Part shown: piece by piece, positions 13,676 to 58,994 of the stretch
Position numbering within the stretch: the stretch's first letter is position 1
Layout of the letters: the number at the start of each line of letters is the position of its first letter
NCBI GenBank assembly: GCA_965238305.1
Contig: CBDEHK010000001.1
Coordinates: forward strand, 449,355-513,354
DNA from: Alphaproteobacteria bacterium
GTDB lineage: Bacteria; Pseudomonadota; Alphaproteobacteria; GCA-2731375
Length of the DNA stretch: 64,000 nt
Reading direction: 5' to 3'
Program-made: the position numbers and the translations under genes
The notes under the pieces: model-generated
Told to the model about the DNA's origin: nothing
The model's database searches: none
The model's input: the letters and a program-made list of their open reading frames with translations, nothing else

Positions 13676-13774
13676 GACTACGGGTTATTCTTTCGTCGCA
13701 TTATTATCGCTCGTCAGGGGCAAAATATTGGCCTTCAATTGACTGGATTAGAGTAATCTTTAAGTTGTCTATTT

Positions 13775-18153: not shown

Positions 18154-18156
18154 ATC

Positions 18157-20686: not shown

Positions 20687-20698
20687 TTGCTTCGCATC

Positions 20699-21721: not shown

Positions 21722-21806
21722 ATCTGTATTCCCTTAAAAGAGTTATAGCTTTCGCCGATCATGTTTATATTCCAACTTCGTTCGTGTCACTAAGCCGAAG
21801 GTAAGT

Positions 21807-22817
21807 ATGTTCGAAATATTGCTGCCCATGGCCACCACGCAAGGTCTCCAGAATGTCGCGTTGGTTTTGTTTGGGGCCCTGGTGATCGACGCGATCATTG
21901 GTGAGCCCAAATGGCTTTATCAACGCGTGACGCACCCGGTCGCGATCATCGGTAAATTTATTGATGTTCTTGAGACGGCTTTTTTTAAGCGCCGACAGGG
22001 CCGCGGTTTGCAAATGGCCAGTGGGCTTTCTCTGGTTCTCATCTGCCTGGCGGTATTCGCCGGCGCCGCCATGCTTATCGCCTGGATTTGCACGAAGTTC
22101 AGCGCTGGAAGCGTCGTTTTGATGCTCCTGACAAGTATGTTTTTGGCCGGACGAAGTCTTTTTGATCACGTTCGCGAAGTGGCCCATGGTTTGACCACCT
22201 TGTTGCAAGGCGGGCGTGAGGCCGTTGCCAAAATTGTCGGTCGCGATCCCGATAGCCTGGATCAAGCCGGCATCGCACGCGCTGCAATCGAAAGTTTGGC
22301 GGAGAATTTTTCCGACGCTGTGGTGGCGCCGGTATTGTGGTTTCTGCTGCTCGGTTTTCCAGGCCTGGTGGCCTACAAAGTCATTAATACGCTGGACAGC
22401 ATGATCGGCCATCGGAACGACCGCTATGAATGGTTCGGCAAGGTAGCAGCCCGGCTTGACGACGCCGTGAATTGGCCGGCGGCGCGATTGAGTGGTTTCA
22501 TTCTGGTCTTGGCGGCAGCGGTTGTTCCCGGATTTCATGGACAAAGCGCGTTGGTGACGATGCTGCGTGATGCCGGGCAGCACAAATCGGTCAATGCCGG
22601 TTGGCCGGAGGCCGCCATGGCCGGCGCCCTGAATATCGCCCTGGCTGGCCCTCGGGTTTATGACGGCAAGCGGGTAGAAGATGACTGGATGGGCACTGGC
22701 CGGCAAGATATCGCGGCGCCGGATATCGACCGCGCCCTCAGGCTTTACCTCACCGCCAATGTGATTTTGGCGTCGTCGGTTTTGAGCCTGTGGTGGCTGT
22801 TGTCTGAGATTACCTGA
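21807..22817 (+). CDS. cobD: Adenosylcobinamide-phosphate synthase
   Basis: GEPKWLYQRVTHPVAIIGKFID (CbiB/CobD HPV motif); membrane protein; the real gene among two overlapping antisense ORFs. Confidence 0.85.
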   Translation: MFEILLPMATTQGLQNVALVLFGALVIDAIIGEPKWLYQRVTHPVAIIGKFIDVLETAFFKRRQGRGLQMASGLSLVLICLAVFAGAAMLIAWICTKFSAGSVVLMLLTSMFLAGRSLFDHVREVAHGLTTLLQGGREAVAKIVGRDPDSLDQAGIARAAIESLAENFSDAVVAPVLWFLLLGFPGLVAYKVINTLDSMIGHRNDRYEWFGKVAARLDDAVNWPAARLSGFILVLAAAVVPGFHGQSALVTMLRDAGQHKSVNAGWPEAAMAGALNIALAGPRVYDGKRVEDDWMGTGRQDIAAPDIDRALRLYLTANVILASSVLSLWWLLSEIT

Positions 22818-24273
22818 CATGAGCAATCTCCAGCATGTGGTCTAGGGACAATTCTTTTTCCAACTGCGCCGCCAGTTGGTCCAGGGCCTGGTCGACAACA
22901 AGATCGTAAGCGAGCTTGGAGGGCTCTCGATGGCGCAATCGGGACAGGAAGGCGTGGCGAAAATCATCGCCCCGGAACAGCCCATGCAAATAGCAGCCGG
23001 CAACCAGTCGATCCGGACTTTGCGCGCCGTCATTTCGCGTGGAGAAAGATAAAAACGGGGTATCGCAGTCGGCGCCGCAGCTATCGCCGATATGGATTTC
23101 GTAACCGTTCACATTCTTCCCGGTGGCGATATGGATACCGCCGGTCTCTCCCAGCTCTTTGCGCCCGCGTAAGGTTGTTTCGATGTTCAGCAGACCCAGA
23201 CCGTCGATTTCTTCTGTCGCGCTTTCGATCCGCTCCGGGTCGCGGATTTTCTTGCCAAGCATCTGATAACCGCCGCAGATGCCCAGGATAGCACCGCCGC
23301 GGCGGTGATGGGCCTGAATATCGATATCCCAACCTTGCTGTCGAAGGAATGCCATGTCGGCAATCGTGGCTTTTGTGCCGGGCAGAATGATCAGATCGCA
23401 AGCAGCTGGAATAGCCTCACCGGCCGGGACAAACAGCAGCGACACATCGGGTTCCAACTTGAGCGGATCAAAATCATCGAAATTTGCGATCCGGGACAGT
23501 TTGGGCACGGCAATGCGAATGGCCCCTGCAGGCGCCTTCGTTATCGCCTCCAACGCCATGGCGTCTTCCGCCGGTAATTTGGCGACAGCGCTGCTATGTT
23601 CAACGACACCGAATGAAGCCCAGCCGGTACGTTGCGTAATCATTTCCAAGCCGCTGCCGAACAAGGATTTGTCGCCGCGGAATTTGTTGATGATGTACCC
23701 TTTTACCCGGGCCTTATCATCGCTGTTTAGTAATTCGAACGTCCCAACCAAGCTCGCGATCACCCCGCCACGGTCGATATCGGCGACCAAGGCAACCGCA
23801 ATGTCGGCGGCGTCAGCAAACGCCATATTGGCGATATCCAAGCCCGGCAAATTTATTTCCGCCGGGCTGCCGGCACCTTCGACCAACATCAGGTCCGCGT
23901 CGTTGGCCAAGCCTTGGTAGCTGTCCAGTATCTGCGGCAGCAAGGTCGCTTTCATCTCCTGATAAGCCCGCGCGTTGGCATTGCCCAAGCGTTCTCCCAA
24001 GACAATGACCTGCGCGCCAACGTCACTTTGCGGCTTTAGAAGCACCGGGTTCATGTGCACGCTCGCCGCGGTCCGGCAGGCCAGGGCTTGTAGATGTTGG
24101 GCCCGGCCAATTTCACCACCATCTGCGGTGACGGCGGCGTTATTCGACATATTCTGCGGTTTAAAAGGTCGGACGGTTAAACCGCGATTGCTATAGGCGC
24201 GCGCCAGTCCGGCGACGAGGACTGATTTCCCCACGTCCGACCCGGTCCCTTGCATCATCAGTGCGCCCGTCAT
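22810..24273 (-). CDS. cobQ: Cobyric acid synthase
   Basis: MTGALMMQGTGSDVGKSVLVAGLARAY; CobQ/CbiP with a glutamine amidotransferase C-terminal domain. Confidence 0.85.
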   Translation of the reverse strand: MTGALMMQGTGSDVGKSVLVAGLARAYSNRGLTVRPFKPQNMSNNAAVTADGGEIGRAQHLQALACRTAASVHMNPVLLKPQSDVGAQVIVLGERLGNANARAYQEMKATLLPQILDSYQGLANDADLMLVEGAGSPAEINLPGLDIANMAFADAADIAVALVADIDRGGVIASLVGTFELLNSDDKARVKGYIINKFRGDKSLFGSGLEMITQRTGWASFGVVEHSSAVAKLPAEDAMALEAITKAPAGAIRIAVPKLSRIANFDDFDPLKLEPDVSLLFVPAGEAIPAACDLIILPGTKATIADMAFLRQQGWDIDIQAHHRRGGAILGICGGYQMLGKKIRDPERIESATEEIDGLGLLNIETTLRGRKELGETGGIHIATGKNVNGYEIHIGDSCGADCDTPFLSFSTRNDGAQSPDRLVAGCYLHGLFRGDDFRHAFLSRLRHREPSKLAYDLVVDQALDQLAAQLEKELSLDHMLEIAHVR

Positions 24274-24281
24274 TTCGCCCC

Positions 24282-24938
24282 CTAAAATTCGATACCGACT
24301 TGGGCTTTGACGCCGGATCGGAAAGGATGTTTGATTTGCGTCATCTCGGTCACCAAATCGGCGCAGTCGATCAATTCATCTTTCGCATTGCGTCCGGTGA
24401 CAACGATGTGCAGGTTTTCGGGTCGGTTCTGCAATGTTTCGATGACATCGTCCAATGGCAGATAGTCGTAGCGGAGAACGATATTTAATTCGTCCAGGAC
24501 AATCATGTCGTAGGCCGGATCCGGCCCGCGCGCCGCTTCAATCATCGCCTTCGATTTTTCCCAAGCCGCATTGGCGGCGGCAATATCCCGGGCCCGGTCC
24601 TGCGTGTCCCAAGTAAATCCTTCGCCCATGGCGTTGATCGTCACCAGATCGGGATAATTCTCCTGGATCGTGCGTTCGCCGGTTTCCCACGCACCTTTGA
24701 CATATTGCACAATGCCGACCCGCATACCGTTGCCGATGGCGCGCAAGGCCAGGCCGAAAGCGGCGGTCGATTTGCCCTTGCCTTTGCCGGTATGAACAAT
24801 CAACAAGCCTTTCTCGATCGTTTTGGTGGCGATCATTTTTTCCCGCGCCGCCTTTTTCTTTGCGGCTTTTTCGTTGGCCCGTTGATTGGCATCGTCGTCG
24901 CCAACCGTTTCATAGGCTTTTTTCTTCTCGTTCATGCG
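24282..24938 (-). CDS. cobO: Cob(I)yrinic acid a,c-diamide adenosyltransferase
   Basis: HTGKGKGKSTAAFGLALRAIGNGMRVGIVQYVKGAWETGE; start chosen at MNEKKK, abutting the cobN stop (the ORF would extend to 25007). Confidence 0.8.
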   Translation of the reverse strand, partial: RMNEKKKAYETVGDDDANQRANEKAAKKKAAREKMIATKTIEKGLLIVHTGKGKGKSTAAFGLALRAIGNGMRVGIVQYVKGAWETGERTIQENYPDLVTINAMGEGFTWDTQDRARDIAAANAAWEKSKAMIEAARGPDPAYDMIVLDELNIVLRYDYLPLDDVIETLQNRPENLHIVVTGRNAKDELIDCADLVTEMTQIKHPFRSGVKAQVGIEF

Positions 24939-27900
24939 CTCCATTCCTCCTCTATAGCGGCAAGCCCGGCTAATTCCGCTTGGGCAGAATTTGATCGCGG
25001 TTGCCATAGCTCACGGGCGCAGGCTTCCAGCAATTTTTCCGCCATTTCCCGCAACGCGGCCGGATTATGTTTCAACAAAAACTCGCGCACTTCCAGATCG
25101 TTTAAGTACGCCTCAAAGACGGCGTCGAAATGATGGTTTTGAACCACCCGGGCGGTGGCGGCAAAGGCAAACATATAGTCGACGGTGGCGGCCATTTCGA
25201 ACGCCCCTTTGTAACCGTGACGCATGACCCCGGCGATCCACTTCGGATTGACCACGCGGGCCCGGACAATGCGGCCGATTTCATCTTCTAGGGTACGGAT
25301 CCGTGGGTTTTCCGGCCGGCTATGGTCGTTGTGATAGACCGTTGGCTGGGTCCCGGAGAAATGGCGAATGGCCGCCGTCATGCCACCTTCGAACTGATAA
25401 TAGTCGTCGGAATCCAACAAATCATGCTCGCGATTGTCCTGGTTCTGAATGACCGCTTCGGTGGTCGATAACAATTGCTGGAATTGCTGATGGGTCGGTT
25501 GACCGGCCTGCCCACCGCCGTAAGCGTAACCGCCCCAAACCAGATAGGCTTGCGCCAAGTCGCGGTCGTCGCGCCAGCCTTTTTCATCGATCAGGGCTTG
25601 CAATCCGGCCCCATAAGCACCGGGCATGGAGCCGAAAACACGGGCGCCGGCCAGACGTTCGCTGTCGCTCTCATTATATCCTTCGGTTTTGAGGCGGGCT
25701 TTGTCGACTTTAACCCGTGCCGCCATTGGGTTGAAATTGTCCGGTTCGTCCAATGCCGCAATCGCGCGTGCCGCACTATCGATTAGATCGACTTGCGCCG
25801 GGAAGGCGTCGCGGAAAAAGCCGGAAATGCGGAAGGTCACATCGACCCGTGGCCGGTCCAGGATCGACAACGGCATGATCTCAAATCCGGTGACCCGTCT
25901 GGAGGCCGGCTCCCACGATGGTTGCACCCCCATCAACGCTAAAGCTTGCGCAATATCGTCGCCGCCGGTGCGCATATTGGCGGTGCCCCAGGCGCTGATC
26001 GCCAGATGCCGGGGCCAGGCACCATGTCGCTGGCGGAATTCATCGACCAATAACCCGGCGGAGTGCCAACCCAGTTGCCAAGCCGCCGGCGTCGGCACCG
26101 AGCGGCTATCGACAGAATAGAAATTACGGCCGGTTGGCAACACATCGATGCGCCCCCGGGTCGGTGCGCCGGACGGGCCAGGTTCAACAAATCTACCGTC
26201 CAGACCGGTCAACAAGGCGGCGATCTCCCGGCTGCCGCAGTCATCGACCGCGGCGGCGATTTCGGTTTTGATGGTATCGGTCACGGCTTTGGTGATCTGC
26301 CAGCCTTCGTCTGCAATCACCTCACCATCGACCAAGGCAGCGGCCAGCAGCTCCAAGCGCTCGACCGTATCGCCTTGGCTGCGCCAACTATCAGCGGTGA
26401 TTTTTGCCAAAACATCCGGCTTCGGTCCGGCCCAAGCAGCGCCTAGTTCGCAGGCCAGGGGATCGAAAGCGTCCTCTCCGACAGACAAACCGAGATCGAT
26501 CGCCAAGCCGCGGATAATTGAAGCATTGCCGTCTTTGCCATCATGTCGGGGCAAGCGTGCCAACGCCACCAACAAATCCCGGCGCTGGCGCCCGGATGGC
26601 GACAGGCCAAAGATGTGCAGGCCATCGCGAATTTGCAGTTCTTTCAGCTCGCAAAGATAATTGTCCAGCTTCGATAGCGCCGTGTCGTCGTCATCCTTTT
26701 TGCCGATGCCGATATCCCGGTCGAGACCGATATCGCGGCTAAGCTCTAGGATCTGTTCTTTCAATAATTTCACCCGCCGCGGATCGACACTTACCGCGTC
26801 ATAATATTCGTCGACCAGAAGCTCCAGATCGGCCAGCGGCCCGTAGCTTTCCGCCCGCGTCAAAGGTGGTGTCAAATGGTCGATAATGACCGCCTGGGCC
26901 CGGCGCTTGGCTTGCGTGCCTTCGCCTGGATCGTTGACGATGAAAGGATAGAGATGGGGCAACGGTCCCAATGCGGCTTCCGGAAAACATTGTTGCGAAA
27001 GCGCGTTCGATTTCCCCGGCAACCATTCCAAATTGCCATGTTTGCCCAAGTGGATGATCGCGTCAACGCCGATATCGTCGCGTAGCCAGCCATAGAACGC
27101 CATATAACCATGCGGTGGCACCAAATCCGGATCGTGATAGCTGGCTTGCGGATCGATGTTGTAGCCGCGGGCCGGCTGCAGCCCGACGATTATGTTGCCA
27201 AATTCAAGCGCCGGTAGGATCAGCTGGGCGCCAACGCAGAACGGATCGTCTTCAACATCGCCCCATCGCTCGGTTATTTGCTGCTGAACCGCCGCCGGCA
27301 GGTGATTGAAAAATTCACGATAAGCCGCGACCGGATAAGCGATGCCGCCGCTTTTCTGAGCCCGTCTGCCAATGTCGTTGGTGGGTCCGGCGGCCAATTG
27401 ATGGATCAGCCGATCGCCAGTTTCTGGAATGGCTCCGACCTGATAACCAGCGCCTTGCAATGCCTGCAGCACCACAATCGCGCCCGCCGGTGCATCCAAA
27501 CCAACCCCATTGCCCAAGCGTCCATCCTTGTTTGGGTAGTTTGCAAAGATGATAGCAAGTCGCCGGTCCACCGGTTTTTTGCGTCGCAACTTGACCCAAT
27601 TGGCGGCAAGCTGGCAGGTGAAATCGATGCGATCCGCTTCCGCTTCATAGGCGATCGTTGGATATTGCGTTTCCGCATCGAAGGTCACTTCGGACTTGAA
27701 CGAAACCGCGCGCGCGATGATCCGACCATCGACCTCCGGGAGGGCGATATTCATAGCGATATCACGGGCGTTTAGACCGTGACTTTTATCGGCCCAGCTT
27801 TCCCGGTCGCTGCCGGCAAAAATCACCTGCAGCACCGGGCAAGCCGGTTTCTCCAACGGCGACGCTGCCCGCTCGGTGTTGGGACGGGAAACCGCAAATC

Positions 27901-28702
27901 CGGTGGCGTTCAAAATCACCTGCGGTTCGGTTTGCGCGAATATCGCATCGACCAGGGCGGCTGACCCGGCATCCTTTAGACTGGCAACATAAAGCGGCAG
28001 CGGATTAAGACCCTGGTTACGCAAACCTTCAATTAAAGCGTCCACCGGCGCCAGATTGCCGGCCTGAAATAGGGCTCGATAAAATACGATCGCCGCCGTT
28101 GGTGCCGCTGGTTGCCATTGTTTTTGCACATCATCTAATGAGACATCTTCCAGCCCAGGCCAATAAAGCCCGGCCCGCAACAATAGCTGCGGTTCGAACC
28201 AAGTTTCGTTTTGTTCGCCAAGCAGCGACGCGCCATAGGCAAGCAGTGAGCGGGCATTTGCCGGTCCGCCCTGCACACAATATTGCCAAAGCCGGTGGCA
28301 GACATCCGTTCCAAGCGTCGATAATCCGGCTAACTCCGGGTCCGGTTGATCGTCGCCCGGCACAATCGCCAGCTTGATTTGTTGATCGCGGCAGGTCTTG
28401 ACAATCTGCTCGACCCCATAAGGCCAATAATTGGCCCCGCCCAGCAGTCGAACAATCACCAGCCGCGCACCAGAGATCACCTCGCCAACATACAAATCGA
28501 CGGAATAGGGATGCGCCAAATTCATCAGATTGGCGAGACGCAGGCTAGGCAAGTCAGGGCCAATCGCGTCGCGGGCGGCGACCAGCATTTGCAGGTCGCT
28601 ATCGGCGGCCGAGAGCACGACAATATCGCCGGCGCTCTGACCCAGGTCGACGGCTTCGCTGCCATCGACGATCCCCCCTGGTTTTGCCGCGAGTAAGTGC
28701 AT
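24932..28702 (-). CDS. cobN: Cobaltochelatase large subunit CobN
   Basis: 1256 aa; MHLLAAKPGGIVDGSEAVDLGQSAGDIVVLSAADSDL; CobN/Mg-chelatase H family length and N-terminus. Confidence 0.85.
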   Translation of the reverse strand: MHLLAAKPGGIVDGSEAVDLGQSAGDIVVLSAADSDLQMLVAARDAIGPDLPSLRLANLMNLAHPYSVDLYVGEVISGARLVIVRLLGGANYWPYGVEQIVKTCRDQQIKLAIVPGDDQPDPELAGLSTLGTDVCHRLWQYCVQGGPANARSLLAYGASLLGEQNETWFEPQLLLRAGLYWPGLEDVSLDDVQKQWQPAAPTAAIVFYRALFQAGNLAPVDALIEGLRNQGLNPLPLYVASLKDAGSAALVDAIFAQTEPQVILNATGFAVSRPNTERAASPLEKPACPVLQVIFAGSDRESWADKSHGLNARDIAMNIALPEVDGRIIARAVSFKSEVTFDAETQYPTIAYEAEADRIDFTCQLAANWVKLRRKKPVDRRLAIIFANYPNKDGRLGNGVGLDAPAGAIVVLQALQGAGYQVGAIPETGDRLIHQLAAGPTNDIGRRAQKSGGIAYPVAAYREFFNHLPAAVQQQITERWGDVEDDPFCVGAQLILPALEFGNIIVGLQPARGYNIDPQASYHDPDLVPPHGYMAFYGWLRDDIGVDAIIHLGKHGNLEWLPGKSNALSQQCFPEAALGPLPHLYPFIVNDPGEGTQAKRRAQAVIIDHLTPPLTRAESYGPLADLELLVDEYYDAVSVDPRRVKLLKEQILELSRDIGLDRDIGIGKKDDDDTALSKLDNYLCELKELQIRDGLHIFGLSPSGRQRRDLLVALARLPRHDGKDGNASIIRGLAIDLGLSVGEDAFDPLACELGAAWAGPKPDVLAKITADSWRSQGDTVERLELLAAALVDGEVIADEGWQITKAVTDTIKTEIAAAVDDCGSREIAALLTGLDGRFVEPGPSGAPTRGRIDVLPTGRNFYSVDSRSVPTPAAWQLGWHSAGLLVDEFRQRHGAWPRHLAISAWGTANMRTGGDDIAQALALMGVQPSWEPASRRVTGFEIMPLSILDRPRVDVTFRISGFFRDAFPAQVDLIDSAARAIAALDEPDNFNPMAARVKVDKARLKTEGYNESDSERLAGARVFGSMPGAYGAGLQALIDEKGWRDDRDLAQAYLVWGGYAYGGGQAGQPTHQQFQQLLSTTEAVIQNQDNREHDLLDSDDYYQFEGGMTAAIRHFSGTQPTVYHNDHSRPENPRIRTLEDEIGRIVRARVVNPKWIAGVMRHGYKGAFEMAATVDYMFAFAATARVVQNHHFDAVFEAYLNDLEVREFLLKHNPAALREMAEKLLEACARELWQPRSNSAQAELAGLAAIEEEWSA

Positions 28703-28712
28703 GAAAAAGGTC

Positions 28713-29747
28713 CTAAGCCTGAATGATGGCGTTGATCGCGGCCTGATCCAGGCCGGCTTGCCCGATCACCACGATCTGCCCTTGGCGGCTCTCCTGGTTT
28801 TGCCATTCGCGGTCGAAATAATGTTGTAAGCGGCGGCCGACCCCTTGGATCAGCAAGCGCATATCCTTGCCTTCGACGGCGACAAAACCCTTGAGGCGCA
28901 GGATGTCATGCTCTGCCGCCGCCCGGCGCAAGCGATCCAGCATGCCATCCAGATCTTTGATGACATCGACGGAGACGATAAAACTTTCGAAATCGTCATG
29001 TTCATGATCGTCCTCGTCGTCGTGATGAGAGGGGCGGTTCATCAGATCATCTTCGGCCGCCGCTTCCAAACCCAATAAGGTGGCGGCGTCGATGGCGCCG
29101 TGTCGGGCCGGCACGATGGCGATTTCCTGCCGCAATTCTTTGCGCAGATCATCGGCGGCCTTGCCCAAACTGGCTTCGTCCATCAGATCCGCTTTGTTCA
29201 AAATGACCATGTCGGCACTGGCCAGCTGATCTTCGAACAATTCAGCCAGCGGACTTTCATGGTCCAAAGCGTCATCGGCCAGGCGTTGCGCCGCGACCGC
29301 GTCCGGATCCTCGGCAAACAGACCGTCGGCAAAAGCCGGCCCATCGACCACAGCGACGACCCCGTCGACCGTGACCCGGGTACGGATATCCGGCCAGTTG
29401 AAGGCTTTGATCAAGGGTTTCGGCAAGGCCAGGCCAGACGTTTCGATGACGATGTGATCTATCGGGTCGGCCCGGTTCAATAGCGCGTTCATGGTCGGGA
29501 CAAAATCGTCGGCGACGGTGCAGCAAATGCAACCGTTGGCCAATTCCACGATATCGGCTTCGCTACAGGTTTCCTCGCCGCAGGCTTTCAAGATTTCGCC
29601 ATCGACGCCGACATCGCCAAATTCGTTGATAATAAGGGCGATTTTGCGCCCGTTGGCGGTTTCCAACAGATGCCGAATAAGACTGGTTTTGCCGGCCCCT
29701 AAAAAGCCAGTGATCACGGTGGTGGGGACACGGTTGAGACTATTCAT
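28713..29747 (-). CDS. cobW: Cobalamin biosynthesis GTPase CobW (COG0523 family)
   Basis: GFLGAGKTSL P-loop, CICCTV metal motif, His/Asp-rich stretch HHDDEDDHEHDDFE. Confidence 0.85.
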   Translation of the reverse strand: MNSLNRVPTTVITGFLGAGKTSLIRHLLETANGRKIALIINEFGDVGVDGEILKACGEETCSEADIVELANGCICCTVADDFVPTMNALLNRADPIDHIVIETSGLALPKPLIKAFNWPDIRTRVTVDGVVAVVDGPAFADGLFAEDPDAVAAQRLADDALDHESPLAELFEDQLASADMVILNKADLMDEASLGKAADDLRKELRQEIAIVPARHGAIDAATLLGLEAAAEDDLMNRPSHHDDEDDHEHDDFESFIVSVDVIKDLDGMLDRLRRAAAEHDILRLKGFVAVEGKDMRLLIQGVGRRLQHYFDREWQNQESRQGQIVVIGQAGLDQAAINAIIQA

Positions 29748-30298
29748 CGGGCAACATCCTCGGTTAGTTGGCCTTTTAGGATTAGCGGCAGGCCGGCAGC
29801 GGTGAAAATGACATTATCGGCGATCATGGCGGCGCGTTGGTTCATGCAGCCGCTGAGGTCGCGAAATTTACGGGCGAGATCGTTTTCAGGCACGATGGAC
29901 AGGCCGACTTCGTTTGATATCAAAGTGATTGGACAGGTAACGGCTTGCACCGCCTCCAGCAGCGCCGTTACTTCGTGATCGATATCCCCATCGGCCAGCA
30001 GATGATTGGACAGCCAAAGGGTCAGGCAATCGACCAGGATCGGCAAACCGATTTGGCCGGCTTCCGCAATCGCTTGGGCCAGGTCCATCGGCGCTTCAAT
30101 CGTGCGCCATGTGTGGTTGCGTCGGGCCTGATGGGCGTCGATGCGTTGTCGCATTTCCTCGTCAAAAGCTTGCGCGGTGGCGATATAGATGCGGTTTTGG
30201 CCTTGCCCGCAACACAGGCGTTCACCCAAACGGCTTTTCCCCGAACGGGCACCCCCCAGGATTAGTGAAATTTCCGCAAGTCGGCCCTCTGATCGCAT
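29744..30298 (-). CDS. cobU: Adenosylcobinamide kinase / adenosylcobinamide-phosphate guanylyltransferase
   Basis: ISLILGGARSGKSRLGE P-loop; start chosen at MRSEG (the ORF extends to 30364, which would leave no room for the riboswitch expression platform). Confidence 0.8.
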   Translation of the reverse strand: MRSEGRLAEISLILGGARSGKSRLGERLCCGQGQNRIYIATAQAFDEEMRQRIDAHQARRNHTWRTIEAPMDLAQAIAEAGQIGLPILVDCLTLWLSNHLLADGDIDHEVTALLEAVQAVTCPITLISNEVGLSIVPENDLARKFRDLSGCMNQRAAMIADNVIFTAAGLPLILKGQLTEDVAR

Positions 30299-30367
30299 GA
30301 CGCTCCTGCTCTCCCTCCGAAGCTTGGTCAATACCGCCGTGCGCGTCTCCTGACTTAGGCTCATGGG

Positions 30368-30545
30368 TCCCGAGGCCTTCCCAGCAGATTAATCTGCCAG
30401 TGGCTGTTTCCCGGTTCCTCGCCATTCACAGTTGCGGGGGCAGTGTTGGAATTTCCATGATTTTTACCTGGAGCACCAACTTCCGCGCCGCAGCGGTCCA
30501 GGAAACTAGCACGAGAGGCCGGGCCAGAGCAATCGTGCTGGACGG
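30368..30545 (-). ncRNA. Cobalamin (AdoCbl) riboswitch upstream of cobU-cobW-cobN-cobO-cobQ
   Basis: Minus-strand read: ...GGTGCTCCAGG...CCCGCAACTGTGAATGGCGAGGAACCGGGAAACAGCCACTGGCAGATTAATCTGCTGGGAAGGCC, containing the B12 box GCCACTG and the CCCGCAACTGT element. Confidence 0.8.
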
Positions 30546-40687: not shown

Positions 40688-40762
<75 letters not shown>

Positions 40763-51900: not shown

Positions 51901-52896
51901 ATGAAACGCATTGCAGTTATCGGCGGTGGTGCCTGGGGCACAGCGCTGGCCCAGGTCTGTCGGGCCAATGGCCGCGACACCGTGATCTGGGCCTTGGAAG
52001 ACGACGTTGTCGGGGCGATCAACCAGAGCCACGAAAACAAGGTTTATCTGCCGGGTGTGCCGCTTGATCCCGATTTGCGTGCGACCAGGGAACTGGGCGA
52101 AGCCGGCGACGCGGATCTGGTGCTGTTGGTGACGCCGGCGCAGCATTTGCGTAGTATTGCCAGACAACTCGCGGGGCAGGTGAAGGGCGGTGTGCCAATG
52201 GTGATCTGCTCCAAAGGGGTGGAGATCGGTAGTTTCGCCTTGATGAGCGAGGTGTTGGCGGAAATCCTGCCGGAAAACCCGCCGGCTATCCTGTCAGGGC
52301 CGACCTTTGCTCAAGAAGTAGCGTCCGGCCTGCCGACCGCCGTGACTTTGGCGGCAGCGGGCGAAAAAACCGGCGGCGCCATTGTTGAAGCCATCGGCCG
52401 GCCCACCTTCCGTCCTTATTTGAGCGATGACATTATTGGTGCCCAGATCGGCGGTGCCGTGAAAAATGTGATTGCGGTCGCCTGTGGCATCGTTGAAGGC
52501 AAGCGCCTGGGTGAAAATGCCCGCGCCGCGCTGATGACCCGAGGGCTGGCGGAGCTGGCGCGCTACGGGATCGCCCGTGGCGCCCGCATGGAAACCCTAA
52601 TGGGATTATCCGGCATCGGCGATCTGTCGCTGACCTGCAATAGTTTGCAGTCGCGCAACATGTCGTTTGGCGCCGAACTAGGGCAGGGGAAGACCGCGGC
52701 TGAGATTAAAGCGGCGCGCAATTCCGTCGCCGAAGGGGTCCATACCGCGGCGGCCGTGACGGCGGAGGCCACGGCCAAGAATATCGACATGCCGATCGCG
52801 GCGACGGTCGATCTAATCGCCAATCAGGGGGGCAATGTCGACGACGCCATTCAGGCCTTGCTCAGCCGCCCCTTCCAACCGGAATTCCGCGATTGA
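51901..52896 (+). CDS. gpsA: NAD(P)H-dependent glycerol-3-phosphate dehydrogenase
   Basis: MKRIAVIGGGAWGTALAQV Rossmann N-terminus; GpsA length. Confidence 0.9.
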   Translation: MKRIAVIGGGAWGTALAQVCRANGRDTVIWALEDDVVGAINQSHENKVYLPGVPLDPDLRATRELGEAGDADLVLLVTPAQHLRSIARQLAGQVKGGVPMVICSKGVEIGSFALMSEVLAEILPENPPAILSGPTFAQEVASGLPTAVTLAAAGEKTGGAIVEAIGRPTFRPYLSDDIIGAQIGGAVKNVIAVACGIVEGKRLGENARAALMTRGLAELARYGIARGARMETLMGLSGIGDLSLTCNSLQSRNMSFGAELGQGKTAAEIKAARNSVAEGVHTAAAVTAEATAKNIDMPIAATVDLIANQGGNVDDAIQALLSRPFQPEFRD

Positions 52897-52942
52897 GCAA
52901 AGACTTGCTATAATATCAAGATCGCCGCAGAATTTCCCCAGT

Positions 52943-53965
52943 ATGGATAGTCGCGCGGTAAAACAGCTGGCTTTGGATTTGGGTGCCGATTTGGTCGGTA
53001 TTGCCAGCGCCAAAATTTTGAACGCCTTTCCCCCCGATTTGCGGTTTCCGCAAACGCCGGAGCGGATTTCCCCCCATGTCAAAAGCGTTGTCGTGCTGGT
53101 GCAGCGGATACCGGTCGGTGCCTTCCGCTGCAAAAGCAACGTCCCGGTGCAATATATGGATATGCTGGTATTGCGAAAAATGGACCGGGTCGCCCACCGC
53201 CTGGCGGAAAAATTGGAACGCGCTGGGCATCCAAGCTTCGTGACGGCGGCGCAAGAGACCGACTGGAATTTCAAGAATGCCAGTTATGGCCATTTATCGA
53301 CCCGTCATCTGGGGGTTGAGGCGGGACTTGGCACCTTCGGTTTGGAAGTGAATATTCTGACCCCGGAATTTGGTCCCCGGCTTTATTTGACCGGGGTCTT
53401 GACGGAACTTGAACTGGACGCCGATGCGCCGATCAGCGAACAGGTCTGTATCGGGGAAAGCTGCAGCCGTTGTCTGCATTCCTGCCCCACTGACGCGGTC
53501 GGCCATTTTGCCATCGACAAGCGCGCCTGTGCCATGGAAGCGCAGGAATTCGGTTTCGCAACGATCCTGAAATACCTAAACCGGTTGATCGAGGCGCCGG
53601 ACGGCAAACATCAAGAGATGTTGAAATCCCGCGACGTCTTCGGTTTCTGGCAGGGCCTGTTGCGCGTTGTCGGCTCGTTCGGCGATTGCCCCAGATGTTT
53701 GGCGGTCTGCCCGGTTGGCAATGATTATCACGCACATCTAGCGAAGGTGCAGAAAGTCATCCCGGAACGCACGCCCGAAAAAGTGGCGAAGGGCAAATCT
53801 TTCAAAGAAGCGCGCCAGGAAGGTGGCGAAATTGCCGGCTTAGATAACTGGAATATCCGCTGGGTCGGCCCAGACGGCTATCAGGGCATGGTGGCGCGGC
53901 AATTACAGGCCTTCAAAGCCGAACAGCGCGAACGCGAAGTGGCGTATCAGAAGGAGGATGATTAA
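52943..53965 (+). CDS. QueG / reductive-dehalogenase-superfamily Fe-S protein, paralogue 1
   Basis: AGLGTFGLEVNILTPEFGPRLYLTGVLTELEL (QueG-like GLGxxGK...G..L.L.T motif region); Cys motifs CIGESCSRCLHSCP and CPRCLAVCPVGNDY. Confidence 0.6.
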   Translation: MDSRAVKQLALDLGADLVGIASAKILNAFPPDLRFPQTPERISPHVKSVVVLVQRIPVGAFRCKSNVPVQYMDMLVLRKMDRVAHRLAEKLERAGHPSFVTAAQETDWNFKNASYGHLSTRHLGVEAGLGTFGLEVNILTPEFGPRLYLTGVLTELELDADAPISEQVCIGESCSRCLHSCPTDAVGHFAIDKRACAMEAQEFGFATILKYLNRLIEAPDGKHQEMLKSRDVFGFWQGLLRVVGSFGDCPRCLAVCPVGNDYHAHLAKVQKVIPERTPEKVAKGKSFKEARQEGGEIAGLDNWNIRWVGPDGYQGMVARQLQAFKAEQREREVAYQKEDD

Positions 53966-53969
53966 GGTC

Positions 53970-54938
53970 ATGGTCGCGGCTTTTCAAGAACCGCTCACGC
54001 TTAGCGAGATCAAACAACAGGCCAAGGCGTTTGGTGCCGACCTGGTCGGCGTGGCGGCTGGCCAAGTGCTGGAAGAATACGCCGGGGAAGGGCGCAAACC
54101 GTCCGACATCACCGATCATGACGCCAGCCGGGTCATTGTTCTGGCCAAACGCTATAGCGCCGGCACCGCGCGCATCTTGGACTGGAACAATCGGCATAAA
54201 TATTACAATGACGAATTGACCCTGACAGCATTGGAAGAAACCTCCCTGGAACTGGTCTATTGGCTCGAGGATAAAGGTTATCCCGCCATTATCGTCCCGC
54301 CGACCCATGTTGATCCCTGGCGCTATTGGGGCGACCCGAACGCCCATCAAGAAACCCTGTTGTCGATGCCGCACGCGGCGGTGGAAGCGGGGCTGGGCAC
54401 CTTGGGCCTGAATTTACAACTGATCACGCCGGAATATGGGCCTCGCGTGATCCTGACCGTCGTCTTGTGTTCGGTCGACTGCGAAACCGACCAGCGGCAG
54501 GAAAAAGCGCTTTGTTTGGGTCCGGAATGTGGGCGTTGCCTTTTGGCCTGTCCGGGCGACGTGATTGGGCAATGGCAACGCGATTGGGAAGCGTGCGATG
54601 ATTATCGCGCGCCCCATGGTTTCAAACAACTGACCAGCCACATGACGGAAATTTTGGAAACGAGCGACGCGGAAGCCCGCAAGGACTTGGTCCGCTCCGA
54701 AACCAGTTTTAATCTGTGGCAAAGTATCTTGCGGGGCAGCGGTGTCATTACCGGCTGCCGGCGTTGTCAGGACGTCTGTCCTGTCGGCGCTGATTATGGC
54801 GGTTTGCAGGACGCATTGGATACTATTCCAGAGGCGACTGGTGATAAACAAAAGCGCCTTGAGGGATATAAATCGTCGCCGATCGCAGCTGGATACGAAG
54901 CGCAGAAACGTTGGATTGGGAAATTCGATGATGAATGA
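53970..54938 (+). CDS. QueG / reductive-dehalogenase-superfamily Fe-S protein, paralogue 2
   Basis: AGLGTLGLNLQLITPEYGPRVILTVVL; CLGPECGRCLLACP and CRRCQDVCPVGADY; AAGGAGG RBS 12 nt upstream; overlaps or abuts both neighbouring genes. Confidence 0.6.
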   Translation: MVAAFQEPLTLSEIKQQAKAFGADLVGVAAGQVLEEYAGEGRKPSDITDHDASRVIVLAKRYSAGTARILDWNNRHKYYNDELTLTALEETSLELVYWLEDKGYPAIIVPPTHVDPWRYWGDPNAHQETLLSMPHAAVEAGLGTLGLNLQLITPEYGPRVILTVVLCSVDCETDQRQEKALCLGPECGRCLLACPGDVIGQWQRDWEACDDYRAPHGFKQLTSHMTEILETSDAEARKDLVRSETSFNLWQSILRGSGVITGCRRCQDVCPVGADYGGLQDALDTIPEATGDKQKRLEGYKSSPIAAGYEAQKRWIGKFDDE

Positions 54939-56226
54939 GGCACCCCTGCCGACGCCAAAATCAAAGGCCGACATTGAAATACTGCAACGGATGCGTAAAA
55001 AGATCGCCGTTGAACGGGCCCGCCAAAGCCCCTTTTGGGCCGACAAACTGGCCAATATCAATAGCGACAAACTGGACGATCCCGAGGAATGGGGCAAAAT
55101 TCCGATCCTGCACAAAGAAGAACTGCGGGCCTTGAGCGCGGCAGAGTTCTATCGCGATTTCTGCCACGGCACAAAGTCGGATTATGCGGAATATTGGCGG
55201 TCCGGCGGCAGCACTGGCAAACCCTTATTCTATCCGCGAAGCAAGGAAGACTTGCGTTACAATATGCTGGGTTTCACCCGCACCTTTACCTGCATGGGGA
55301 TTGCGGCCGGGGCGGCGGCGCATCTTTCCTTCCCCCTTGGCATTCATCCGGCCGGCCATATGTGGGCCCGCGCCGGCGAAATCATGGGCCTGGCCATGGC
55401 TTGGGTCGGTGCCGGTAACTCCGCCCCGTCCGAAGCCCAGCTGCAATTGATCGAGATGCTGAAACCCGATCTATGGATGGGGATGTCGAGTTATGGGCTA
55501 CATCTGGCAAATCTGGCGGAAAGTCTGGATATCGACCTGACCGCATCCAGCGTCGAACGTATTCTCTGTACCGCCGAGCCTTTGTCGATGGCAAAACGGC
55601 AGAAGCTGCAACGGATGTGGGGCGCCGATGTATTCGATGCTTTCGGGATGACGGAAATTTCGATGATGGGGGCGGAAGCGGGCAGCGCCGGCGAATTACA
55701 TATCTGGACCGATCTGGCCCATATTGAAGTGGTCGATCCGGAAAGTCATCAACCGGTGGCGCCGGGAGCGCCCGGCGCTCTGGTCGTCACCTCGCTTTAC
55801 GGTAACAATTGCACCCCGTTCCTGCGCTGGTTCTCCGGCGATATCGTGGTCTATCAGGAAGAAGGCTCTAGCGACAGTCCGCTATCGGTCTTCCCGGTTC
55901 TACGCCACGCCCACCGCACCGCCGGGTTCTTCAAAGTCCGCGGTGTCAATATCAACCATGCGGAATTGGAAGATCTGATGTTTGACGACGCCGCGATCGG
56001 TGATTTCAAAGCCGCGGCAGTGAATGATGGCGGTCTGGACGATTTGCGCCTGTCCATTGAGATTGCCAAGGGGCAGCACCCCCAACAAGTGAGCGACTTG
56101 ATCGCGCAGAAAATAAAAGCAACTTTCGAAATTAGTCCTATTATCGAACAACTGCCGACCGGAACATTGGCGGCGGAATTTGAGAGCAGCGTCAAAGCGC
56201 CACGCTTTGCTGATTTGCGGGAATAA
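54928..56226 (+). CDS. Phenylacetate-CoA ligase (PaaK) / coenzyme F390 synthetase-family adenylate-forming enzyme
   Basis: SGGSTGKP P-loop-like AMP-binding motif (YWRSGGSTGKPLFYP), about 432 aa PaaK-like length; the start overlaps the upstream stop (ATGATGAATGA). Confidence 0.7.
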   Translation: MMNEAPLPTPKSKADIEILQRMRKKIAVERARQSPFWADKLANINSDKLDDPEEWGKIPILHKEELRALSAAEFYRDFCHGTKSDYAEYWRSGGSTGKPLFYPRSKEDLRYNMLGFTRTFTCMGIAAGAAAHLSFPLGIHPAGHMWARAGEIMGLAMAWVGAGNSAPSEAQLQLIEMLKPDLWMGMSSYGLHLANLAESLDIDLTASSVERILCTAEPLSMAKRQKLQRMWGADVFDAFGMTEISMMGAEAGSAGELHIWTDLAHIEVVDPESHQPVAPGAPGALVVTSLYGNNCTPFLRWFSGDIVVYQEEGSSDSPLSVFPVLRHAHRTAGFFKVRGVNINHAELEDLMFDDAAIGDFKAAAVNDGGLDDLRLSIEIAKGQHPQQVSDLIAQKIKATFEISPIIEQLPTGTLAAEFESSVKAPRFADLRE

Positions 56227-56237
56227 ATTAGGGGAAA

Positions 56238-56663
56238 TTGATTATGGAATATTGGCTGTTTAAATCGGAACCGGGCGCCTGGTCCTGGGAAGATCATCAA
56301 AAAGAGGGCAAAAAGGGCGCGGAATGGGATGGTGTCCGCAACTATCAGGCCAACAATTATATGAAAGCGATGAAAATCGGCGACAAAGCTTTCTTCTACC
56401 ATTCGGTGAATGAAAAACGCATCGTCGGCATCGTCGAGGTGATCAAAGAACATTACCCCGACCCTACAGATGCAAAGGGCCGCTTCGGCATGGTCGATCT
56501 GCGGGCCATCGAAACCGTGCCCAATCCGGTCACCCTGGAAGATATAAAAGCCGATGCGCGGTTCAAGGATTTGGCGTTGGTGAACAATACCCGCTTGTCG
56601 GTGCAGCCGGTGGACACAAAGTCCTGGAAAGCGATCTGCAAGATGGGCGGCGTCAAAGGGTAG
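56238..56663 (+). CDS. EVE-domain (PUA-like) protein
   Basis: MEYWLFKSEPGAWSWEDH...FFYHS..IVGIVEV; typical EVE/Thy28-like, about 140 aa. Confidence 0.75.
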   Translation: MIMEYWLFKSEPGAWSWEDHQKEGKKGAEWDGVRNYQANNYMKAMKIGDKAFFYHSVNEKRIVGIVEVIKEHYPDPTDAKGRFGMVDLRAIETVPNPVTLEDIKADARFKDLALVNNTRLSVQPVDTKSWKAICKMGGVKG

Positions 56664-56671
56664 CGGCGTTC

Positions 56672-57919
56672 GTGATAGCCAGAACTTTCCAATCGATGCT
56701 ACCACGCCCACTATTTTCCGCGGCGAATGAAGAACGATTTCAGACGGCGTGCCGGCAACGGTCGGTGGCGATATCGAAACGCGTGGTTTATTTCACGATG
56801 GTGAACCTTGTCCTTTTCACCGGTTGGGACGCCCTTATCGACGCCGAGCAGCTAATCATTACAATCCCTATTCGCATTGGCTGCATCGCTTATTTTGTTT
56901 TTCTTGCCGTGATGACAGGAAATCAGCGAGTCACCAGCAGCAATCGATTATGGTTATTGCTGGTTGCCTCAGCCAATGCGGCACTGACGCTCGATTTCGC
57001 GTTGATCTTAGCGGTGCTGCCGAACGGTGCGTTCATCGGTGTGCCGGGTCATATCATCGTTATTGTCACCATTCCGACCTTGATTTCCGGACTAAGGCCC
57101 GCGGCGGTCTGCCTTCTGCCCATGCTTATTCTGCCTAATCTTGTGATGTTGATCAGTGGCGAAGCGGCGGTCGTGGTGATCAATGCCAATATCTGGATTG
57201 TTAGTGCCGCGTCATTGACCTTGCTGGTCAGTTATTTTTTTGAACTGCTGGATCGACGCGCCTTTGCCCTGGAGCTGTCGGTCGAGGCCGAAAAAGAGCG
57301 CGCCGACGATCTGTTACGTAATATTCTACCGGTCAGCATTGCCGAGGAATTGAAAGAACATCACCGCACGGTGCCGCAAAATATTCCTGCCGCCTCCGTC
57401 CTGTTTGCCGACCTGGCCGGCTTCACCCGCTTGGCGCAAGACATGCCGGCGGAAAAACTTGTTGGTTTGTTGGATGAACTATTCACAAGCTTCGACCAAC
57501 TGTCACATAAATTAGGGGCGGAAAAAATCAAGACCATCGGCGATAGCTACATGGCGGCGACCGGCGTGCCGTCATCGCAAGAAGATCATGCCGAACGCGC
57601 GGTGAAGCTGGCCTTGGCGATGCAGGACGCGCAAAACGTCTTCAATGGTCGCCACGGCTTGAAACTCAAACTGCGCATCGGGATTAATTCGGGGTCGCTG
57701 GTCGCCGGCGTCATCGGGCAGCATAAATTCGCATACGACTTGTGGGGTGATACGGTCAATGTAGCGCAACGCATGGAGGCCCATGGCGTTGCCGGTGAAA
57801 TCCAAATCTCCGAACCAACCAAGACCTTGCTGCCGCCCGGCTATATTTTTCGCGCGCAAGGTTCGATCGACCTGAAAGGGCACGATCCGATCGATGCCTA
57901 TTTTGTCAATCGCGCGTAA
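56672..57919 (+). CDS. Membrane-anchored class III adenylate/guanylate cyclase
   Basis: N-terminal about 6 TM helices; cyclase domain FADLAGFTRLA...KTIGDSYMAATG...FAYDLWGDTVNVAQRMEAHG. Confidence 0.8.
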   Translation: MIARTFQSMLPRPLFSAANEERFQTACRQRSVAISKRVVYFTMVNLVLFTGWDALIDAEQLIITIPIRIGCIAYFVFLAVMTGNQRVTSSNRLWLLLVASANAALTLDFALILAVLPNGAFIGVPGHIIVIVTIPTLISGLRPAAVCLLPMLILPNLVMLISGEAAVVVINANIWIVSAASLTLLVSYFFELLDRRAFALELSVEAEKERADDLLRNILPVSIAEELKEHHRTVPQNIPAASVLFADLAGFTRLAQDMPAEKLVGLLDELFTSFDQLSHKLGAEKIKTIGDSYMAATGVPSSQEDHAERAVKLALAMQDAQNVFNGRHGLKLKLRIGINSGSLVAGVIGQHKFAYDLWGDTVNVAQRMEAHGVAGEIQISEPTKTLLPPGYIFRAQGSIDLKGHDPIDAYFVNRA

Positions 57920-57974
57920 TATTTTAAAAACGGTTTGTAACATGACAAAAACAAAATGGTGGGGAGACAGATTG

Positions 57975-58994
57975 ATGGAACGAGCGGACTGGTTAGCGCA
58001 GACAAGGGAAGAAATATTGGAGCCGGATTTGCCGATCTGCGATCCCCATCACCACCTTTGGGACTTTCCGAATTATCGTTATCTGCTAGATGAACTGCTG
58101 ACCGATACCAATAGCGGCCACAAAATCGTCAGCACGGTCTTTGTCGAATGCGGTGCTTTCTATCGTGCACAGGGCCCGGAGGACTTGGCGCCGGTTGGTG
58201 AAATTGAGGCGGTCAATGGTCAAGCGGCGATGGCGGCCAGCGGCCTCTATGGCGATACCAGGGCGTGTGCCGGTATTGTCGGTCATGCCAACCTGTTATT
58301 GGGCGACAAGGTACAGGACGTGTTGCAAGCACAAATTGCCGGCGGCGGCGCGCCCAGCCGCTTTCGCGGTATTCGCCATTCCGGCAGTTGGCATACGAGC
58401 GACGATATTCGCAATTCCCATTCAGGCGCGCCTGAACACATTTTCCTCGATGACACGTTCCGCCAGGGCTTTGCGCAGCTGGCGCCCCATAATCTCAGTT
58501 TTGAAGGTTGGCTCTATTTCAATCAAATTCCGGAACTGACCGAATTGGCGCGGGCGTTTCCGGAGACCACGATAATTTTCAATCACTTCGGCGGACCTTT
58601 AGGCATTGGCCCCTATGCCGGCAAGCGCGATGAGGTATTTGCGGCCTGGCGCGACAGTGTTGTCGAGCTGGCAAAATGCGAAAATGTTGTTGCCAAGCTG
58701 GGCGGCCTGGGCATGGCGATCTGCGGCTTTCAATTTCATAAACGTGACAGACCGCCAGGATCAGAAGAGCTGGCGCAGCATTGGGCACCTTACGTTCAAC
58801 ACGCCGTCGATTGTTTTGGCCCCGATCGCTGCATGTTCGAAAGCAACTTTCCGGTCGACAAAGTCTCCTGCAGTTATGCGGTTCTGTGGAACGCCTTCAA
58901 ACGCCTGGCCAGCGGCCATTCAGCGGGCGAAAAAACGGCGCTGTTCCACGATACTGCCAGCCGAATTTACCGGCTCGATTCGCAAGATAGTTAA
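57975..58994 (+). CDS. Amidohydrolase-2 family metal-dependent hydrolase (TIM barrel)
   Basis: ICDPHHHLWDF N-terminal metal-binding motif; start at MERADW after a GGGGAG RBS. Confidence 0.7.
   Translation: MERADWLAQTREEILEPDLPICDPHHHLWDFPNYRYLLDELLTDTNSGHKIVSTVFVECGAFYRAQGPEDLAPVGEIEAVNGQAAMAASGLYGDTRACAGIVGHANLLLGDKVQDVLQAQIAGGGAPSRFRGIRHSGSWHTSDDIRNSHSGAPEHIFLDDTFRQGFAQLAPHNLSFEGWLYFNQIPELTELARAFPETTIIFNHFGGPLGIGPYAGKRDEVFAAWRDSVVELAKCENVVAKLGGLGMAICGFQFHKRDRPPGSEELAQHWAPYVQHAVDCFGPDRCMFESNFPVDKVSCSYAVLWNAFKRLASGHSAGEKTALFHDTASRIYRLDSQDS

Follow-up and report, generated by a model that had tools for sequence, protein, structure and literature searches.

To our knowledge, only three activities are known for proteins of the RdhA/QueG/CblC fold (class III), namely reductive dehalogenation, epoxyqueuosine reduction and cobalamin processing. 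The known reactions of the fold are all reductive eliminations at cobalt (PMC4646009), and in known members two iron-sulphur (Fe-S) clusters reduce a base-off corrinoid with expulsion of a halide, an epoxide oxygen or the upper ligand of CblC. Here we describe a locus in a 64,000-nucleotide (nt) stretch of an Alphaproteobacteria genome (assembly GCA_965238305.1, contig CBDEHK010000001.1, positions 449,355 to 513,354; the whole stretch is hereafter the window) in which genes for two proteins of this fold, designated A and B, are followed by a gene for a PaaK-type ligase. A and B constitute a family of their own within the class-III superfamily, separate from QueG and from RdhA. Our preferred interpretation, to which we give an even chance, is that positions 52943-56226 comprise a self-contained three-gene module in which an A/B corrinoid reductase would remove a substituent from an acid activated by the ligase. 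The family, its predicted heteromeric architecture and its constant ligase partner are new; the fold and the cofactor logic were already known. The genes concerned are listed below.

52943-53965, + strand: subunit A, 340 amino acids (aa), RdhA/QueG-fold protein with two predicted [4Fe-4S] sites
53970-54938, + strand: subunit B, 322 aa; an alternative start at 53958 would give 326 aa
54931-56226, + strand: PaaK-type adenylate-forming ligase, 431 aa; open reading frame (ORF) open from 54928
From TTG 56238 or, more probably, ATG 56244, + strand: EVE-domain gene

A and B are paralogues that display 33% identity over 313 aa (E=3e-54), and both contain the AGLGT(F/L)GL...TPE(F/Y)GPR core by which a preliminary description of this locus had recognized them as tandem QueG-like proteins. 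The motifs on which their assignment turns are as follows.

53321-53380, + strand: core motif of A, AGLGTFGLEVNILTPEFGPR in translation, common to RdhA and QueG
54387-54446, + strand: core motif of B
53447-53488, + strand: Fe-S motif 1 of A, CIGESCSRCLHSCP, C-x4-C-x2-C-x3-CP, with four Cys invariant in the A and B families
53528-53530, + strand: lone Cys196 of A, invariant, equivalent to QueG Cys214 (topology from PMC5175355)
53687-53713, + strand: Fe-S motif 2 of A, CPRCLAVCP, C-x2-C-x3-CP
54513-54554, + strand: Fe-S motif 1 of B, CLGPECGRCLLACP
54594-54596, + strand: lone Cys213 of B
54756-54782, + strand: Fe-S motif 2 of B, CRRCQDVCP, with Pfam Fer4 matches at residues 265-278

The core motif of A, AGLGTFGLEVNILTPEFGPR, aligns to 'AGLGQASRMGACITPEFGPN' in PceA and to 'AGIGFSAKNCMITTPEYGSY' in QueG. 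Cysteines follow the pattern C169-x4-C174-x2-C177-x3-C181-P, lone C196 and C249-x2-C252-x3-C256-P in A, and C186-x4-C191-x2-C194-x3-C198-P, lone C213 and C267-x2-C270-x3-C274-P in B, with the lone Cys about 14-15 residues past motif 1 in each. The ligands of Bacillus subtilis QueG are Cys188-x2-Cys191-x2-Cys194-x3-Cys198...Cys214...Cys240-x2-Cys243-x3-Cys247 (PMC5175355). In that enzyme, the corrinoid-adjacent cluster is ligated by the final Cys of motif 1, the lone Cys, and the first and second Cys of motif 2 (PMC5175355; PMC4646009). The eight Cys of A and B reproduce this topology, with x4 instead of x2 in the first spacing as the sole deviation. The preliminary description was correct that the first motif is non-canonical, but its second 'half-motif' is not a true half-motif, because C196 or C213 fills the fourth ligand position; by position, Cys196 of A would be the fourth ligand of the corrinoid-proximal cluster. 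All eight Cys were invariant in 27 A-type and 24 B-type aligned sequences (51 in total). Among 118 A-type and 120 B-type sequences, 61 positions were conserved and identical across both families, including the eight Cys, Y71, D73, D107, W108, S119, H122 and the AGxG motif. Columns conserved at 97% or above numbered 173 in A versus 121 in B, and A is therefore the more constrained of the two paralogues.

Comparison with family models, as the preliminary description had proposed, placed both proteins far below the QueG and RdhA cutoffs. The QueG model TIGR00276 was the best single NCBIfam match of A and of B, at 56.3 and 27.7 bits respectively versus an equivalog cutoff of 200, and the matches were local, spanning model positions about 128-207 from the AGLG motif to the first Cys motif. 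The RdhA model TIGR02486 scored 35.8 bits for A and 20.7 bits for B versus a subfamily cutoff of 160.35. A Pfam scan of A and B returned weak ferredoxin motifs only and no match to DUF1730 (PF08331), and the parts of A and B that align to QueG contain no counterpart of its HEAT tRNA-binding region. Alignment to B. subtilis QueG showed the Fe-S ligands to be kept and the catalytic residues unmatched: in a phmmer alignment, which is a pairing of sequences only, Asp134 of QueG falls opposite Ser114 of A and the Asp-Tyr-His motif opposite R-V-A. Asp134 and Asp-Tyr-His are the catalytic residues of QueG in B. subtilis numbering (PMC5175355, PMC4646009). At the level of fold, A and B each have a minimal core of the nitroreductase-like, cobalamin-binding type, as in RdhA and QueG, and after it a ferredoxin insert for two clusters. 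Structural comparison gave figures of 17.6 for PceA, 17.0 for NpRdhA, 16.9 for the RDH complex and 16.0 for QueG, then 9-10 for CblC/MMACHC and 6.2 or less for flavin nitroreductases; the highest-ranking matches were corrinoid proteins without exception, far ahead of the flavin nitroreductases.

A and B share with the RdhAs (PceA 4uqu, RDH complex 8q4h, catabolic NpRdhA 6zxu/4ras) the GADLVGIA strand, the AGLG...TPEFGPR core and the order of the Cys motifs, in which C-x2-C-x3-CP comes after the first. The PceA dimer, and the dimer mimic of NpRdhA with its vestigial second core, also parallel the A/B pair (PMC4646009 Fig. 7; PMC12219181), and A and B most likely form a heterodimer. They differ from RdhAs of 450-700 aa in being only about 330 aa long, in the x4 spacing of the first Cys motif and in lacking a twin-arginine translocation (TAT) signal, an RdhB-like anchor or a fused reductase domain. 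In A the GADLVGIA strand starts as early as residue 14, too close to the N terminus for a TAT leader, and the module contained no gene for a small membrane protein, either in the window or in the annotated loci. A and B are, moreover, two different paralogous subunits, each with a full Fe-S set, and are tied to a PaaK-type ligase, which is no feature of RdhA operons in the cited literature. QueG (5d08, 5d6s) is the best sequence match in the PDB (E=3e-12) and resembles A and B in its eight-Cys ligand topology with the lone Cys after motif 1, its cytoplasmic location and its similar size. Beyond the sub-cutoff score, the missing DUF1730 and HEAT counterparts and the unconserved catalytic residues, A is set apart from QueG by an insert of 52 residues between the lone Cys and motif 2, versus 25 in QueG. 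In contrast to the pairs or fusions of the A/B family, QueG is monomeric (PMC4646009), and the genomic context of A and B is CoA metabolism rather than queuosine genes.

The third gene encodes an enzyme of the PaaK-like branch of the ANL superfamily, in line with the PaaK/F390-synthetase-type adenylating enzyme of the preliminary description. It matched Pfam AMP-binding (PF00501) at 47.3 bits versus a cutoff of 29.9 and AMP-binding_C_2 (PF14535) weakly, at 19.2 versus 25 bits. The P-loop SGGSTGKP is encoded at 55201-55224, and residues 15-431 align full-length to PaaK structures. Among solved structures, the best matches were PaaK 4r1l (E=3e-26) and 6hdw, a 2-hydroxyisobutyryl-CoA synthetase; AjiA1 is a further solved relative. 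The AMP-binding fold, short PaaK-type C-terminal domain and SGGSTGKP motif are common to PaaK and PaaK-like enzymes (4r1l, 2y27, 6hdw, AjiA1 6wuq, 6siw). Unlike PaaK itself, however, the ligase lies far below the equivalog cutoffs, with 112.6 bits for TIGR02155 and 126.8 bits for NF041878 versus 646 and 700, and the window contains no accompanying paa operon genes; on these scores it is assigned to a PaaK-like clade separate from PaaK.

Database searches returned 2,404 relatives of A at E <= 0.001, the 120 best being 73-100% identical, and 1,941 relatives of B, the 120 best being 63-100% identical. The 120 best relatives of A were mostly unnamed or labelled 'epoxyqueuosine reductase QueG' by the Joint Genome Institute (JGI). 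A scan of species representatives found a relative in 137 species, and we examined the best 80 loci, 75 of which were assessable by contig extent; neighbourhood ORFs came from a caller weighted by GC content at third codon positions, and some calls in the neighbourhood maps are approximate. The best of the 80 loci was 85% identical to A of the window. Hosts were nearly all alphaproteobacterial metagenome-assembled genomes (MAGs; Rhodospirillales, Defluviicoccus, Hyphomicrobiales), and also included the isolate Amorphus coralli DSM 19760 (L052) and one MAG each with the label Marinacidobacterales, Chromatiales or Gammaproteobacteria. In 71 of the 75 assessable loci, A, B and the ligase were found in this order on one strand, and in 68 of those 71 the tblastn match to the ligase started no more than 300 nt past the end of the match to B. 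The ligase was upstream in two loci and missing from the locus in two others; in any order, it lay beside A-B in 73 of 75. With more than 2,000 family members and the order kept in about 70 genomes, the trio is beyond chance. Of the related loci, L002 (the closest relative, A 85% identical) alone has gpsA, tsaD and the EVE gene beside the module, and the flanks of the others differ, so that the conserved unit is A-B-ligase.

Departures from the common arrangement retained the association. Natural A-linker-B fusions (P0121, 670 aa; P0122, 678 aa) keep all motifs in both halves, and P0121 adjoins a divergently transcribed 431-aa PaaK-like gene, indicating that the association of A-B with the ligase survives a change of architecture. 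In a more distant clade (L088; A 40% identical), the A-like gene overlaps a 347-aa gene that occupies the position of B and has no Pfam match, an ANL-type AMP-binding ligase lies 385 nt downstream, beyond a small ORF on the opposite strand, and a divergent ABC transporter is also present. The fusions, the setting of P0121 and the L088 clade all support a physical and functional link between A, B and the ligase. Adjacency of two QueG-like genes and a PaaK-like gene, which the preliminary description had raised as a question for a neighbourhood survey, is in this way a property of the family that persists through fusion and rearrangement. The suggestion that the combination is not a described system also held, in that the full-text literature covered, which includes few subscription-journal papers and leaves most of them outside, contained no description of the module family or of the gene combination.

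These data bear directly on the possibility that the locus contains an ordinary queG and a degenerate duplicate, set by chance beside an unrelated ligase. Many homologues carry the JGI annotation 'epoxyqueuosine reductase QueG' and TIGR00276 is the best single match for both proteins, but the scores of 56 and 28 bits versus 200 are local only, the catalytic Asp134 and Asp-Tyr-His of QueG are not conserved in the alignment of A, the ligase stays adjacent in 73 of 75 loci, and both copies are strongly conserved, with identities to the window of 73-85% for A and 59-76% for B across about 75 genomes. We regard this possibility as effectively refuted and leave it almost no probability. A and B are a distinct conserved subfamily, as first proposed, rather than a housekeeping QueG with a decayed copy, and identification of the reaction would correct a systematic mis-annotation as well as extend corrinoid chemistry.

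The genes that recur around the module share a common theme, the handling of aromatic or alicyclic acids as CoA esters. Directly upstream of A in 20 loci was an ANL gene of the benzoate-CoA-ligase family (TIGR02262, 368 bits versus a cutoff of 375), which in L083 overlaps A by one base. A Transglut_core protein occurred in 18 loci and enoyl-CoA hydratases in 18, the one examined being PaaG-like. Kynureninase was found near the module in 11 loci (L055 copy, 292 bits versus a cutoff of 246), and in three loci (L066:11375-13251, L047 and L056) a KynB-type cyclase gene directly after the ligase sits between it and kynureninase, its end overlapping kynureninase by 4 nt in L066. These three loci may represent an operon in which the module is fused to the final two kynurenine-pathway steps, and the kynureninase link points to anthranilate-type acids in one lineage. 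Other subsets of loci contained AraC or MarR regulators, a BenE-family transporter, acyl-CoA dehydrogenase, an old yellow enzyme (OYE)-type flavoenzyme, family-III CoA-transferase, Rieske dioxygenase subunits, indolepyruvate-oxidoreductase-like genes and Peripla_BP_6 ABC transporters. In ten closely related loci (L001/L084 type), a bona fide RdhA is encoded about 5 kb from the module.

Reduction by A/B of a substrate activated as an adenylate or CoA ester, as the preliminary description had surmised, is our best reading, and is supported by this aromatic-acid and CoA gene context. The ligase would convert a carboxylic acid to an acyl-adenylate and then probably to a CoA thioester; the acid would most likely be aromatic or aryl-alkanoic, such as anthranilate, another substituted benzoate or an arylacetate. 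A/B would then pass low-potential electrons through the Fe-S chain to a base-off corrinoid and drive a reductive elimination from the activated substrate, with loss of a ring halide, an amino or hydroxyl group, or an epoxide oxygen. Reductive elimination from an aryl-CoA is favoured because every known member of the fold expels a leaving group at a corrinoid. Activation as a CoA ester before reductive loss of a ring substituent is established logic, one example being the way in which 4-aminobenzoyl-CoA is proposed to be reductively deaminated (PMC7500099). The molybdenum aryl-CoA reductases (4-hydroxybenzoyl-CoA reductase type, and the proposed 4-aminobenzoyl-CoA reductase of Desulfatiglans anilini) likewise follow an acid-CoA ligase with a substituent-removing reductase (PMC7500099), but they belong to another enzyme family, use a molybdopterin cofactor and occur in strict anaerobes, so the likeness to the present module would be functional only. 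The ligase partner should reveal the substrate of the module, which is tractable in being small, soluble, free of a signal peptide or anchor and present in the cultured A. coralli DSM 19760. The module may also supply a missing part of the breakdown of aromatic acids or tryptophan in marine, soil and host-associated Alphaproteobacteria.

In a more specific form, which we think unlikely, the module would encode an oxygen-tolerant heterodimeric 'aryl-CoA defunctionalising reductase' that, with a PaaK-type ligase dedicated to it, removes a non-halogen substituent from the CoA ester of an aromatic acid, for example by deamination of anthraniloyl-CoA. Candidates for reductive deamination in the literature covered were molybdenum enzymes only. 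Such an enzyme would represent a new type of B12 reaction, in which a C-N or C-O bond is cleaved on a ring activated by a thioester, and would open a new route of tryptophan or aromatic-acid catabolism in Alphaproteobacteria, starting from kynurenine-derived anthranilate.

The same fold and ligase coupling could also serve a different reduction, either dearomatisation of an aryl-CoA, which would make it a novel reductase of the benzoyl-CoA type, or conversion of an acyl-adenylate or thioester to an aldehyde. In L082, the genes run MarR, acyl-CoA dehydrogenase, OYE, benzoate-CoA-ligase type, A, B, ligase, ABC transporter and two enoyl-CoA hydratases, a setting that resembles operons for ring reduction plus beta-oxidation-like steps, and an invariable ligase partner would fit chemistry on the activated carboxyl. 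Neither dearomatisation nor acyl reduction has a known precedent in the RdhA/QueG/CblC fold (PMC4646009), however, and contexts of the L082 type were confined to a minority of loci, and we hold this alternative to be rather unlikely.

Several observations weigh against removal of a substituent from an activated acid by an A/B corrinoid enzyme. Besides the ligase, no neighbour was universal to the loci and no electron-donor gene was conserved among them. The aromatic-acid context rests on subsets of relatives only, and in the window itself the module lies between gpsA and the EVE gene and has no catabolic genes in its surroundings. Loci with a benzoate-CoA-ligase-type gene carry two ligases, which a scheme of one ligase feeding one reductase does not explain. 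A model of the proposed A-B heterodimer built from a seven-row alignment was of low confidence (predicted local distance difference test 57.8, predicted template-modelling score 0.56) and was not used. As for the cofactor, the surroundings of the module contained no cobalamin riboswitch, and the neighbour families common to at least four related loci included neither cob nor btu genes. Class-III enzymes carry no diagnostic corrinoid-binding sequence motif (PMC4646009), and B12 binding by A and B is for this reason proposed from similarity of fold.

The question of cofactor opens a further set of alternatives, in which A/B would be a corrinoid-independent enzyme that retains the RdhA-like scaffold and the Fe-S clusters and either has lost B12 or uses a different cofactor, or would process a cofactor in the manner of CblC, or would have a biosynthetic rather than a catabolic role. 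The fold has no B12-specific signature by which the first could be dismissed, the module has no riboswitch or cob/btu linkage, and NpRdhA with its vestigial cobalamin-binding core is a precedent for loss of B12 binding (PMC12219181). Several PaaK-like ligases serve natural-product biosynthesis (AjiA1, 6wuq; BagE/FevW; FlxY), and ribA is divergently adjacent in 15 loci. On the other hand, both paralogues retain the complete eight-Cys chain that feeds the corrinoid in known members, the top structural matches were all corrinoid proteins, well above flavin nitroreductases, the organism carries many cobalamin-biosynthesis genes, and the annotated flanks showed no other typical genes of biosynthetic clusters, such as those for non-ribosomal peptide synthetases, polyketide synthases or tailoring sets. 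We consider these alternatives, taken together, rather unlikely, and continue to favour a corrinoid-dependent A/B on the basis of fold. The ribA gene, which encodes GTP cyclohydrolase II, was rejected as a functional partner; its RibA score was ordinary and it was absent from most loci.

The preliminary description had also taken the B12 pathway of the window as support for corrinoid dependence. This pathway is a cobalamin-biosynthesis cluster at 12371-30484 (- strand), headed by a cobalamin riboswitch (30345-30484, 79 bits), and contains CobN (24932-28702), CobW, CobU, two CobB/CobQ-type amidotransferases, a CbiG-methylase fusion, CbiX and corrin methylases. The CobN-type chelatase is of the aerobic-route type, and a CbiX-type chelatase is present in the same cluster. 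A distance of 22 kb separates it from the module, and since there is neither a riboswitch near the module nor, in the neighbour families common to at least four related loci, a cob gene, its proximity is no evidence of linkage; it was rejected as module-linked, and the support it had seemed to offer is circumstantial.

Similarly, the EVE-domain gene that follows the ligase (PF01878, 159.7 bits) had been described as part of the gene system. An EVE homologue was found beside the module in one of the 80 related loci, the closest relative L002, and was absent from the other 79. The gene is a bystander, not a module component, because the adjacency is confined to the window and L002, and with it falls the main argument for a nucleic-acid substrate. 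A system that modifies nucleic acid or tRNA bases, working with EVE as a modified-base reader, would draw on the 12-17 nt that separate the EVE gene from the ligase in the window and on the action on tRNA of QueG, the nearest characterized sequence relative of A and B. It is countered by the absence of EVE from 79 loci, by a Pfam scan that detected no tRNA-binding domain in A or B, by PADLOC, which matched none of the four proteins to a defence system, and by recurrent neighbours from CoA metabolism and aromatic-acid pathways. We judge it very improbable.

Within the window, gpsA (51901-52896) is followed by four co-directional genes on the + strand, A, B, the ligase and EVE, and the ORF positions agree with those first described apart from details of the start codons. 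Translational coupling had been proposed from overlaps of 8 and 11 nt; the tight spacing stands, whereas the exact overlaps depend on the start codons chosen. The A/B junction is a 4-nt gap with a start of B at 53970 or an 8-nt overlap with a start at 53958, of which ATG 53970 is the more likely because a Shine-Dalgarno-like AAGGAGG is present at 53951-53957 and the 322-aa database protein P0271, an exact match to B from 53970, begins there. The B/ligase junction is an 8-nt overlap from 54931, the start of the database ligase protein that matches exactly, or an 11-nt overlap from 54928. The gap between the ligase and EVE is 12 or 17 nt, the probable ATG at 56244 lying 17 nt after the ligase stop. 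A scan for promoters and terminators around the operon returned nothing useful. One candidate element was read from the sequence of the 46-nt spacer between gpsA and A:

52906-52914, + strand: TGcTATAAT, possible extended -10 element (tentative)

The consensus scanner, which requires a -35 hexamer, did not call this element; it suggests that the module may have a promoter of its own.

Downstream of the EVE gene is one ORF, which from the look of its sequence we take to be a membrane adenylate cyclase, followed by an Amidohydro_2 gene (57894-58994, + strand, 124 bits), two genes downstream of the module. The same Pfam family occurs in the L001/L084-type loci in a different ORF cluster, perhaps by coincidence. 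The RdhA of those loci (L084:3783-5123, upstream of the module) is of the cytoplasmic type, with 446 aa and 199.7 bits to TIGR02486, and belongs to a block with Amidohydro_2, RidA, EamA, family-III CoA-transferase and enoyl-CoA hydratase genes.

Additional relatives of A and B were observed at lower similarity. A third paralogue of 308 aa, designated C, was present in L006, L008, L013, L014, L028, L031 and L034 (see also L083:14067-14993), where the order is ligase, Transglut_core gene, C and a conserved 110-aa ORF. Its Cys arrangement is altered to C-x4-C...C-x3-CP...C-x2-C-x3-CP, it scored 26 bits to the QueG model and it has no Pfam match. Two distant single-domain relatives (L086, P0137; L090, P0182) occur in other settings, one as a lone copy between recG and argS and the other as three tandem paralogues next to a TetR-regulator gene, in a locus where neither a PaaK-like nor an ANL ligase was called. 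A separate and apparently uncharacterized family of 735-791 aa (P0222, P0229, P0250 and P0260) contains two QueG/RdhA-like cores in tandem with canonical C-x2-C-x2-C-x3-CP motifs, one member having a DUF1730 match. Elsewhere in the window, a tRNA gene was identified at 40691-40762 (- strand; Rfam, 74 bits).

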